In this document: positions 1,698 through 15,352 of the stretch, piece after piece
Layout of the letters: each line of letters opens with the position of its first letter
How positions within the stretch are numbered: the first letter of the stretch is position 1
Source: Candidatus Heimdallarchaeota archaeon
GTDB taxonomy: Archaea; Asgardarchaeota; Heimdallarchaeia; Heimdallarchaeales; JAJRWK01
Direction of reading: 5' to 3'
Assembly (NCBI GenBank): GCA_027001645.1
Contig: JALTMP010000118.1
Coordinates: forward strand, 1 to 20,000
Length of the DNA stretch: 20,000 nucleotides
Position numbers and translations under genes: made by a program
The notes under the pieces: model-generated
Databases searched by the model: none
Told to the model about the DNA's origin: nothing
The model's input: the letters and a program-made list of their open reading frames with translations, nothing else

Positions 1698-1840
1698 CAT
1701 TGAAGGTGTAGCACAAGCAAAAACAGAAAGAGATTTGCACAACCAGTTAAAACAGATTGAAGATACCGGAAAGATTGATTTCTTTTCTGGTTAAATGGTA
1801 ACGGGACCCCTAAAGCATTTAACATGTTATCTAACTGAAA

Positions 1841-1850
1841 GCATAAATAA
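1841..1850 (+). promoter_or_regulatory. Candidate archaeal Box A (TATA) element for the downstream structured RNA
   Basis: GCATAAATAA lies about 25-30 nt upstream of the predicted RNA start around 1870-1879, in an otherwise non-coding gap. Confidence 0.5.
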
Positions 1851-1878
1851 GGAGCTAAAAAGCATAAGATTGCTGAAT

Positions 1879-2020
1879 ACCGCCGTGACCGTAAGTCAAG
1901 CCGGCTGGCGTGACAGCCAGTAGTGAGCTGTGCTCGCGAAAGCTGTCAAGCTCTGGTTCGCCAGGGCCATAGCGGCCGGGTGATACCCGCTCCCATCCCG
2001 AACGCGGAAATCACGGCGGT
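1879..2020 (+). rRNA. Circularly permuted 5S rRNA (candidate)
   Basis: The canonical archaeal 5S 5' half (GGGCCATAGCGGCCGGG...CCCGCTCCCATCCCGAACGCGGAA, about 1964-2009) lies downstream of the canonical 3' half (AAGTCAAGCCGGC...CAGTAGTG...CGCGAAAGC...CTGG, about 1893-1956). Helix I is 1950-1956/1961-1967 with a TTCG loop. Helix II is 1975-1979/1901-1905. Helix III is 1987-1990/2004-2007. Helix V is 1912-1917/1942-1947. Helix IV is 1923-1928/1932-1937. A new terminal stem pairs 1879-1888 with 2011-2020. Confidence 0.85.
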
Positions 2021-2027
2021 TTTTTTT
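2020..2027 (+). terminator. Poly-T terminator for the permuted 5S-like RNA
   Basis: Eight consecutive T residues directly follow the GC-rich terminal stem. Confidence 0.65.
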
Positions 2028-14338: not shown

Positions 14339-15352
14339 TTAAGAAGTGAGAAGTTTCTCGGCTTTTTTTAGCCTATCTGTGGCGTATTGTTCTAGAAAGG
14401 AGACTTGATTTTCCAACTTCCCGTTAGTGTAAGTTAAATAGCTCTCCCCATTAGGAGGAGCCTTCACAAGGAATAATGATTGAATGGCCCACGAACCGAA
14501 AAGGACATTTACAACGAGCCGGTACATTTCCAATAATCGATCATCATTTAATTCGAGAGGATATCGTTCAAGAAACACTTCCTCGTCATTCTCACGTTGA
14601 GCGATTAGTTCCAAGACGGTAGCAACATCAAATTCTAGATGGGCTTGTCCCGCATAATCCCAATCGACAAGCACTGCATTTTTTTCAGAAATGAGAACAT
14701 TTTGAAGATTAAGATCGCCATGCACGAGAGTTGTTCCGGGTTTTTTTGCAAGAGCCCCATACTTAGAACCAAATAGTGCGAAAGTATCGCTCACGAGGTT
14801 AATGGAATGATCAAGCAGATCTTGATGCTCTGGTAGAAGATGGGCAATTTGTTGAGCCCCTATGAGATAGGAGTTGGAAAGTTGTAAAAATCTCAGGGGG
14901 GACATTGGAGAACCTAATCGATCAGAGAATGTTCGAGGTATTGTTTGTTGGTGAACTTCAGAAAGCGATTCCCCTAAAAGAAGCAGATTCTCTTGAGAAT
15001 ACGCATCTGAAAGAGAAGTGCCCTTGGCGAAGGAGGTGATGAGAATATCACTTTCATGAAGAGAAGATTTTGGAAGGGAAAGCAGAACTTCAGGGGCAAG
15101 TCCTAAGCCAAAAAGAATGCTTAGAGCAGATCGACTCCGGTCAAAACGGGACGAGCCCAGAATGAAATCATCTCCTATTGTGCAATAACTCATAATCACA
15201 TAATCGTCTCCAACTTGTAGCACGGTTTTTGCATAGCTATTTTCGAGAACCTTTACAGACTGATCTAACATGGCTTCGTGGTATTCTGGAGCCTCGGATT
15301 TGAGAATTTCCAGAATGCTGGAGATGATTTCATTTTCAGCCATCAAAGACAA
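14339..15352 (-). CDS. Aminoglycoside phosphotransferase/choline kinase-family small-molecule kinase
   Basis: APH-fold catalytic motifs GTTLVHGDLNLQNVLISEKNAVLVDWDYAGQAHLEFDVATVLEL. Confidence 0.8.
   Translation of the reverse strand: MSLMAENEIISSILEILKSEAPEYHEAMLDQSVKVLENSYAKTVLQVGDDYVIMSYCTIGDDFILGSSRFDRSRSALSILFGLGLAPEVLLSLPKSSLHESDILITSFAKGTSLSDAYSQENLLLLGESLSEVHQQTIPRTFSDRLGSPMSPLRFLQLSNSYLIGAQQIAHLLPEHQDLLDHSINLVSDTFALFGSKYGALAKKPGTTLVHGDLNLQNVLISEKNAVLVDWDYAGQAHLEFDVATVLELIAQRENDEEVFLERYPLELNDDRLLEMYRLVVNVLFGSWAIQSLFLVKAPPNGESYLTYTNGKLENQVSFLEQYATDRLKKAEKLLTS

Follow-up and report, generated by a model that had tools for sequence, protein, structure and literature searches.

Ribosomal RNA (rRNA) of the 5S type occurs universally, and locating its gene is usually a trivial task. 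The closest described case of a structured RNA that is assembled from a permuted gene is the signal recognition particle (SRP) RNA of Thermoproteus tenax and T. uzoniensis, the transcript of which is cut by the endonuclease EndA at a bulge-helix-bulge motif formed by leader and trailer, with RtcB as the proposed ligase (Plagens et al. 2015, PMC4731332). The archaeal 16S and 23S rRNAs are also circularized at bulge-helix-bulge motifs (PMC7758197, PMC12918454), and circular 23S rRNA is the mature ribosomal form in some lineages (PMC12918454, PMC7758197), the 5S rRNA being explicitly named as the exception to archaeal rRNA circularization (PMC12918454). For Sulfolobus and Halobacterium, low-level circular 5S reads have been reported, which were not validated (PMC3326292). 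A permuted 5S rRNA, mtPerm-5S, is found in the mitochondria of brown algae and other stramenopiles (Valach et al. 2014, PMC4267664), and circularly permuted tRNA genes are found in Cyanidioschyzon merolae (Soma et al. 2007, as cited in PMC4267664). In an engineered 5S rRNA of E. coli (cp5S), the native ends are joined by a four-nucleotide connector, and the molecule is functional in ribosomes (Huang et al. 2020, PMC7283268). Here, we describe a permuted 5S rRNA gene in the draft genome of a Candidatus Heimdallarchaeota archaeon (GCA_027001645.1, contig JALTMP010000118.1) and the 10-bp terminal stem that brackets it. The analysis covered the first 20,000 nt of the contig, hereafter the window.

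The gene is not recognized by the standard 5S model. A search of the window with Rfam RF00001 (gathering score 38 bits) yields no match. At a permissive E-value threshold only the 5′ half is matched (1959-2020, 29.5 bits), a search restricted to 1960-2010 returns a 3′-truncated match (32.9 bits, E = 5.1e-06, model positions 7-52), and the 3′ half searched alone with RF00001 gives no match. A covariance model called R1 was built from 19 ordinary 5S rRNAs, namely 18 bacterial ones and that of Methanoplasma, which scores 85.8 bits. These sequences were permuted in silico between GGAA and GU, with the original ends joined by a GAAA connector, and the model is independent of the Heimdall-type homologues discussed below. 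It matches the window at 1895-2009 over its full length (model positions 1-120) with 60.4 bits (E = 1.7e-13). All seven homologue classes score 56.7-66.7 bits with R1, and none of them reaches the gathering score of the Rfam model.

When the permutation is undone, the products align collinearly with the normal 5S rRNA of Methanoplasma and fold into helices I-V, with compensatory changes at 21 of the 35 pairs. The three domains of a 5S rRNA are thus present, including the loop A junction, loop C (CCCAUCCCGAAC), and loop E (AGUA/GAA). On the basis of the full-length R1 match, the collinear alignment, and the compensated helices, 1895-2009 is a complete 5S rRNA, circularly permuted. Relative to the canonical order, the 3′ half comes first, then helix I capped by UUCG, and then the 5′ half. 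On the 5′ side, the first stem strand is followed by CCGUAA, by GUCAAGCC with the 3′ strand of helix II, and by helix V, loop E, helix IV, and loop D. The middle is occupied by helix I (G1950-G1956/UUCG/C1961-C1967) and loop A (CAUA), while the 3′ side consists of the 5′ strand of helix II, loop B, helix III, loop C (CCCAUCCCGAAC), GCGG-AA, a single A, the second stem strand, and a run of eight T. The permutation places the break precisely at the step from the conserved helix III AA bulge (A2008-A2009) to G1895 of GUCAAGCC.

This arrangement shares with mtPerm-5S a helix I closed as a hairpin, ends that lie elsewhere, and a gene missed by the standard model. However, the ends of mtPerm-5S are located at the alpha/gamma junction, there is neither a terminal stem nor a bulge-helix-bulge, and the product is linear, permuted, and organellar. 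In the window, by contrast, half of the molecule is swapped, the break falls in the beta domain, and leader and trailer form a covarying stem. The gene does not belong to the mtPerm-5S type, as its break lies between the AA bulge of helix III and GUCAAG and its gamma domain precedes the 5′ strand of the beta domain.

The displaced ends are brought together by the terminal stem, in which ACCGCCGTGA (1879-1888) and TCACGGCGGT (2011-2020) form 10 of 10 Watson-Crick pairs. It is the outermost helix in both the minimum-free-energy (MFE) and the centroid folds of 1879-2020 (-67.1 kcal/mol, z = -3.99, with none of 200 shuffles equally stable). Sequence and fold thus agree with the first-pass annotation, which had reported the perfect pairing from the letters of the window. 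Its further statements hold as well: that the helix is new relative to canonical 5S (from the Methanoplasma alignment and the R1 boundaries), that the displaced ends of a permuted 5S-like RNA sit in it (from the Rfam half-match, R1, and the alignment), and that it replaces the link between helices III and II (from the break between A2009 and G1895). A repeat finder also lists the stem (as I3), together with about five other non-palindromic 10-bp inverted repeats within 200 nt in the 20-kb window, so that a 10-bp inverted repeat by itself is not unusual here. The stem stands above chance because it exactly brackets a complete permuted 5S and because it is conserved in seven classes. We have also considered the stem and the T-run as a bacterial-type intrinsic terminator, which was rejected: the 122-nt "loop" is a complete 5S, and a terminator scanner finds none.

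A terminal stem of 9-11 bp is found at the same position in every class, with a different sequence each time (Table 1). Full-length MAFFT alignments mis-registered the terminal stems, owing to an insertion and to differences in bulge length, and the pairs were therefore counted on a hand-assembled mini-alignment of the inner nine stem pairs and the four pairs of the central helix described below, with the spacers normalized. In this alignment, 98.3% of the cells are paired. The covariation across homologues that had been proposed as a check of the stem is borne out, as nine of nine stem pairs are changed on both sides. The covariation score is reached by none of 500 shuffles, and sliding the partner strand by 1-3 columns reduces the pairing to 18-38%. 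Seven differing perfect or near-perfect stems at one position are not due to chance. Leader and trailer thus pair, at 97.5%, in a helix conserved by covariation, which is a defining feature of the Thermoproteus SRP type.

The homologues, which fall into at least seven sequence classes (a-g), were obtained through pattern scans and through a search for spurious open reading frames (ORFs) across the gene. The pattern scan of the genome collection was too loose, with at least 119 matches, among them the metagenome-assembled genome (MAG) Dive96 (four contigs), PIR-30, and both Candidatus Heimdallarchaeum genomes. Most of the matches listed are bacterial, being either real 5S genes after a chance match or unrelated coding sequence. 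Many matches of the first pattern in Pseudomonas and Nocardia (L017, L026, L028, L018, L032, and others) are conserved coding sequence rather than 5S, and since coding sequence fits the degenerate pattern, pattern-only searches need caution. A tightened pattern gave 10 matches in the metagenome scan, of which 4 are real. On inspection, the matches in Methanoplasma (L105, L106) and Halogranum (L021) proved not to be permuted 5S. The spurious ORFs added two new classes, L142 and L143-145. Two such translations, P0121 (L142 2001-2267, 88 aa) and P0122 (L143 349-558, 69 aa), run across the permuted 5S and have the peptide GHSEGVTLR...IPNLK in common; their entries in public protein collections are annotation artefacts.

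A search by synteny through homologues of the neighboring isopentenyl phosphate kinase gave the gene only for near-identical copies (L008), and no 5S adjoins the kinase gene in the more distant kinase relatives (66-70% identity). A sister genus (L116), labeled Candidatus Heimdallarchaeota by its submitters, carries the same gene in shared synteny, with an L7Ae protein that is 88% and a kinase that is 67% identical. The permuted gene is also present in both complete Candidatus Heimdallarchaeum genomes (CP084167.1 and CP084166.1), the only complete ones of this genus, at L068 5750-5927 (-) and L117 6513-6690 (+). In these two genomes, 5S genes "could not be predicted" (Wu et al., PMC8813620), which the permutation of the gene would explain. 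Five contigs start or end inside the permuted 5S, namely L029, L037, L044, and L052 of the MAG Dive96_bin2.176 and L011 1-88 (-). Two different upstream and two different downstream flanks occur in Dive96, which implies at least two gene copies and a repeat that breaks assemblies.

Inside the outer stem, a second pairing is found. On the 5′ strand, CCGU abuts the stem and is followed by AAG, while on the 3′ strand AAA separates GCGG from the stem. The central helix CCGU/GCGG and helix III are mutually exclusive, because both use 2004-2007. The order on each strand, central strand, bulge, and flanking helix, is that of the archaeal bulge-helix-bulge. In the nine sequences of the mini-alignment, the central helix is 100% paired and two of its four pairs are changed on both sides, following the 3′ strand of helix III (CCGU or CCGC with GCGG, CGGG or CAGG with CCUG, and CGGG with CCCG). 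The energy of the window conformer with the central helix is -66.9 kcal/mol, compared to -68.0 kcal/mol for the MFE fold. In the window, Dive96, and PIR-30, this conformer is at most about 1 kcal/mol less stable than the MFE fold, and it is the MFE fold in L139. The locus has the 4-bp central helix with at least one flanking 3-nt bulge of the definition in PMC4731332, and it lacks the strict 3-4-3 form (PMC7758197, PMC4731332). Competition of a leader segment with helix III would be detrimental if the segment served no function.

By the geometry of tRNA introns, the cut falls two nucleotides into each bulge. With this rule, the leader through A1894 and the trailer from A2010 would be removed and A2009 would be joined to G1895, giving a predicted circle of 115 nt. 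The predicted junction of CGAACGCGGAA with GUCAAGCCGG, i.e., of GCGGAA with GUCAAGCC, is that of canonical 5S, with nothing lost or gained, and it coincides with the R1 boundaries at 1895 and 2009. The same predicted splice recreates the canonical junction in six of the seven classes, with circles of 115 or 121 nt.

The following sequence of events can be proposed on this basis. The transcript of this Heimdall-related Asgard archaeon (window 1872-2027) would start in the middle of the 5S, at the connection between helix III and helix II, and run through the 3′ half, helix I with its UUCG, and the 5′ half. Leader and trailer would pair as the 10-bp stem and bring the new ends together, and the stem, CCGU/GCGG, and the AAA and AAG bulges would constitute a relaxed bulge-helix-bulge motif. 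The tRNA-splicing endonuclease (EndA) would then cut both bulges behind their second nucleotide, at A1894 and at A2009, and an RtcB-type ligase would join A2009 to G1895. Helix III would re-form, displacing the central helix, and the product would be a 115-nt covalently closed 5S rRNA with the junction ...GCGGAA-GUCAAGCC..., the stem being discarded. We lean, with some confidence, toward this assignment, in which the stem serves processing and the outcome is a circular 5S rRNA, as with the permuted SRP RNA of Thermoproteus. The covarying 4-bp helix and 3-nt bulge inside the stem, together with the predicted splice that recreates the canonical junction, favor a processing stem over the extra arm that the first-pass annotation had left as an alternative, and they suggest that circularization is the maturation route of the permuted transcript.

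The analogy to the Thermoproteus SRP RNA is close. In both cases, a universal structured RNA is "missing" from the annotation because its gene is permuted, the gene has its own TATA promoter (a putative one here), the leader and trailer are short, a 4-bp helix is flanked by a 3-nt bulge or bulges, and cleavage and ligation restore the canonical connectivity as a circle (as predicted here). The two systems differ in that the present RNA is a 5S rRNA, i.e., a component of the ribosome, in an Asgard archaeon rather than in Thermoproteales, and in that its break falls at an internal helix and bulge rather than at a hairpin tip. Cleavage and circularity were shown experimentally for the SRP RNA, whereas they are predicted here. 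The archaeal pre-16S and pre-23S rRNAs likewise combine a leader-trailer helix with a 3-4-3 bulge-helix-bulge, cut by EndA and ligated to a circle, to which a relaxed motif and a predicted reaction would correspond in the present case. Those genes, however, are collinear and their natural ends are joined, whereas here the ligation would mend the permutation break.

A number of observations weigh against processing at the stem. The motif is relaxed, since the helix 3′ of the 5′ bulge has no pairing to the strand preceding GCGG, and endonucleases of strict specificity, which have the alpha4 or alpha'2 architecture, might therefore not cut it. In L139, the predicted product is one nucleotide too long (AUA for AA). 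The mini-alignment leans toward structure, as it was built from segments judged to pair, with the insertion and one bulged A removed. This insertion, of 28-32 nt, separates the outer stem from the central helix in four classes (c, d, f, and g) and disrupts the canonical geometry across from the 3′ bulge. A conserved, covarying hairpin is part of it (loop region GGAUGCGUUCC; L117 6523-6552, with equivalents in L141, L142, and L143), which is oddly well conserved for a discarded leader and hard to reconcile with a simple one. Directly after the stem of the same four classes, NCAG competes as a second possible partner, and it is the one chosen in the MFE fold of L143.

The hairpin may be an expansion arm that is kept, it may assist processing, or it may provide an alternative to the central helix. 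The NCAG(A/U)AAG that precedes it is a partial duplicate of the CAGG-AAAG junction motif. The leader-trailer duplex of L139 (2170-2345, -) is longer than the others, with an outer AAGGAUC/GAUCCUU helix beyond an internal loop UUCUUGG/GCCUUAGG.

The inserted hairpin bears on the alternative in which the stem is retained. In that case, the product would be a linear permuted 5S with its ends clamped by a 10-bp extra arm at helix III and loop B, permuted as in the mitochondria of brown algae, and the Heimdallarchaeum-type genes would keep the hairpin as a second arm. Its sequence conservation and covariation in classes c, d, f, and g are what would be expected for part of a mature RNA. The stem is, moreover, the most stable element of the fold and lies between a promoter-like box and an oligo-T, such that the primary transcript would already have tidy ends, and the brown-algal case shows that a 5S permuted in its final form exists (PMC4267664). 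On the other hand, a retained arm leaves unexplained why the four nucleotides beside the stem remain complementary to the 3′ strand of helix III through three different sequences, in competition with helix III, and why the bulge spacing gives a full-length 5S to the nucleotide. The arm would also emerge at the conserved AA bulge of the L18- and L5-contacting beta domain (PMC4267664), where a steric clash may occur. We thus consider retention of the stem unlikely, while still a serious competitor.

A less probable scenario is that the stem is removed and the ends are left unjoined, by EndA acting without a ligase or by other nucleases, which would give a nicked, linear permuted 5S. Its roughly 115 nt would be kept together only through helices II and III. 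The bulge-helix geometry is the same as for the circularization route, and the ends of archaeal 5S rRNA are matured by tRNase Z (as cited in PMC7714728) and FAU-1 (as cited in PMC7758197). However, the known products of EndA, a 2′,3′-cyclic phosphate and a 5′-OH, are ligation substrates when held by a helix (PMC4731332), and a nick beside the AA bulge would weaken helix III. Finally, a dead, rearranged 5S pseudogene, in which the inverted repeat arose by chance or is the scar of a rearrangement, would be in line with the 10-bp inverted repeats within 200 nt that are not rare in the window and with the sub-threshold score of the Rfam 5S model, but it is highly improbable, because seven divergent classes keep every 5S helix through compensatory changes, two complete genomes without a detectable canonical 5S have the same architecture, and the promoter-like and terminator signals are conserved.

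Returning to the circularization route, it is relevant to ask whether the circle would be opened again. The permuted tRNA genes of C. merolae also have their halves in inverted order, and they are reportedly expressed through a circular intermediate formed at a bulge-helix-bulge-like junction, as proposed here for the 5S, which RNase P and tRNase Z then open again at the natural ends. In contrast to these tRNAs, helix I of the 5S is only 6-7 bp long (7 bp in the window) and bears a conserved stable tetraloop as its cap, features that speak against re-opening. The cap is UUCG also in classes c and d, CUCG, UACG, or UGCG in others, and a hexaloop in L139. The E. coli cp5S likewise has its native ends joined by a 4-nt connector, although this is an artificial construct whose opening lies at loop C or D and which was inserted as a fusion in 23S rRNA. 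We think that the helix I hairpin stays closed and that the circle is the mature RNA, in view of the short helix, the presence of UUCG in three deeply diverged classes, and the tolerance of E. coli for a four-nucleotide connector. As a tentative conclusion, then, the mature ribosomal 5S of these Heimdall-group archaea could well be a closed circle, made from a permuted gene by the tRNA-splicing endonuclease and a ligase. The coordinates of the elements discussed above are collected in Table 1.

Table 1. Elements of the permuted 5S rRNA locus in the window, predicted junction sequences, and terminal stems of the homologue classes.
Feature	Position	Strand	Basis or remark
TATA-like promoter element GCATAAATA (putative)	1841..1849	+	A/T-rich box, ~23 nt upstream of conserved UUGCUG
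Predicted 5′ leader GCUGAAU, putative start near G1872	1872..1878	+	conserved GAUUGCUGAAY
Outer stem, 5′ strand ACCGCCGUGA	1879..1888	+	sequence, fold, repeat finder, covariation
Central 4-bp helix, 5′ strand CCGU (partner GCGG 2004-2007)	1889..1892	+	pairing in all nine sequences
5′-side bulge/linker AAG; predicted cleavage A1894/G1895	1893..1895	+	geometry, R1 start at G1895
5S 3′ half	1895..1956	+	fold, collinear alignment with compensatory pairs, R1 match
GU of outer helix III			part of 3′ half
Loop B, 3′ side			part of 3′ half
Helix II, 3′ strand	1901-1909		part of 3′ half
Helix V	1911-1917 with 1942-1948		part of 3′ half
Loop E (CAGUA/GAAA)			part of 3′ half
Helix IV	1923-1928 with 1932-1937		part of 3′ half
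Loop D	1929-1931		part of 3′ half
Helix I, 3′ strand	1950-1956		part of 3′ half
UUCG tetraloop on helix I, at the place of the normal 5S 5′/3′ ends	1957..1960	+	sequence and fold
5S 5′ half	1961..2009	+	RF00001 truncated match, alignment, R1
Helix I, 5′ strand	1961-1967		part of 5′ half
Loop A (CAUA)			part of 5′ half
Helix II, 5′ strand	1972-1979		part of 5′ half
Loop B			part of 5′ half
Helix III	1987-1992 with 2000-2007		part of 5′ half
Loop C (CCAUCCC within CCCAUCCCGAAC)			part of 5′ half
AA bulge	2008-2009		part of 5′ half
Central helix, 3′ strand GCGG (= helix III 3′ strand)	2004..2007	+	pairing, covariation, conformer energies
AAA bulge (3 nt), central helix to outer stem; predicted cleavage A2009/A2010	2008..2010	+	geometry, R1 end at A2009
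Outer stem, 3′ strand UCACGGCGGU	2011..2020	+	sequence, fold, repeat finder, covariation
T8 run, likely archaeal oligo-T terminator	2020..2027	+	overlaps last stem base; T-runs after the stem in homologues too
Predicted spliced junction, window type CCCGAACGCGGAAGTCAAGCCGGCTGG
Predicted spliced junction, Heimdallarchaeum type CATTCCGAACCTGAAAGTTAAGCCTGCC
Unprocessed junctions, for comparison: GTGACCGTAAGTCAAG and GCGGAAATCACGGCGG
Stem, class a: ACCGCCGUGA/UCACGGCGGU			window and Dive96 MAG (at least two loci)
Stem, class b: UGCCGUCGUGA/UCGCGACGGCA			PIR-30 / L011
Stem, class c: CUAAUGGCA(G)/(U)UGCCAUUAG			Ca. Heimdallarchaeum endolithica PR6, H. aukensis PM71, L137
Stem, class d: GCCUAGUAAGG/CCUUACUAAGGC			L141; one bulged A
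Stem, class e: AGAUCCUGAG/CUCAGGAUCU			L139
Stem, class f: UCUCAACGAUG/CACCGCUGAGA			L142; two A·C mismatches
Stem, class g: GCCUAGUAAG/CUUACUAGGU			L143-145

The sequence around the gene suggests an independent transcription unit of about 150 nt, since the A/T-rich box and the T-run recur across loci. Equivalent A/T boxes are found at the same spacing in the paralogous and orthologous loci L037, L052, L116, and L011, and GAUUGCUGAAY stands directly upstream of the stem in the window and in two different Dive96 loci. The spacing between TATA box and start site in archaea was used to place the predicted start, and at the other end of the unit, oligo-T terminates archaeal transcription. Upstream of the gene, the 9-mer AAAGCATAA occurs twice (window 1839-1847 and 1859-1867), and a 10-bp palindrome, TAACATGTTA, is located at window 1820-1829; these repeats and the palindrome may be promoter or regulator sites.

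The neighboring genes encode isopentenyl phosphate kinase, mevalonate kinase, L7Ae, and S28e, which point to an archaeal host. Neither L7Ae taxonomy nor cluster names were informative on the lineage, and the assignment to the Heimdall group is based on the submitters' label of the sister genus, on the synteny shared with it, and on small GTPases of the Arf/Ras family, a family typical of Asgard archaea. Farther along the window, a perfect 15-bp inverted repeat, AATGAAATCATCTCC/GGAGATGATTTCATT (15161-15175 and 15320-15334, arms 144 nt apart), lies inside or beside the ORF at 14339-15352.

In three of the homologous loci, a tRNA-His(GUG) gene adjoins the permuted 5S: L068 5527-5617 (-), L117 6822-6896 (+), and L142 2285-2374 (-). 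The tRNA-His of H. endolithica has a 16-nt insertion near the variable region, absent from H. aukensis, and that of L142 has an insertion after the anticodon loop. Both insertions probably represent introns. One of the two would then occupy a non-canonical site, a possible sign of a splicing endonuclease of broad specificity, as the heterotetrameric and epsilon2 types are.

A non-exhaustive literature search revealed no description of an Asgard 5S that is permuted or circular, although an earlier publication is possible, and the only permuted 5S found in that search was that of stramenopile mitochondria. For this lineage, the gene will be overlooked systematically by standard annotation (Rfam and RNAmmer-type models) and by criteria of MAG quality that require a 5S. 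If the proposed maturation is correct, circularization at a bulge-helix-bulge, so far described for tRNA introns, for the 16S and 23S rRNAs, and for a single SRP RNA, would extend to the 5S rRNA. These archaea would then be the first cellular lineage with an end-less 5S rRNA, and theirs the first 5S to depend on bulge-helix-bulge processing. A circular 5S would thus occur in the archaeal group considered closest to eukaryotes, and a natural circular or permuted 5S would bear on the question of why the 5S rRNA stays an autonomous molecule.

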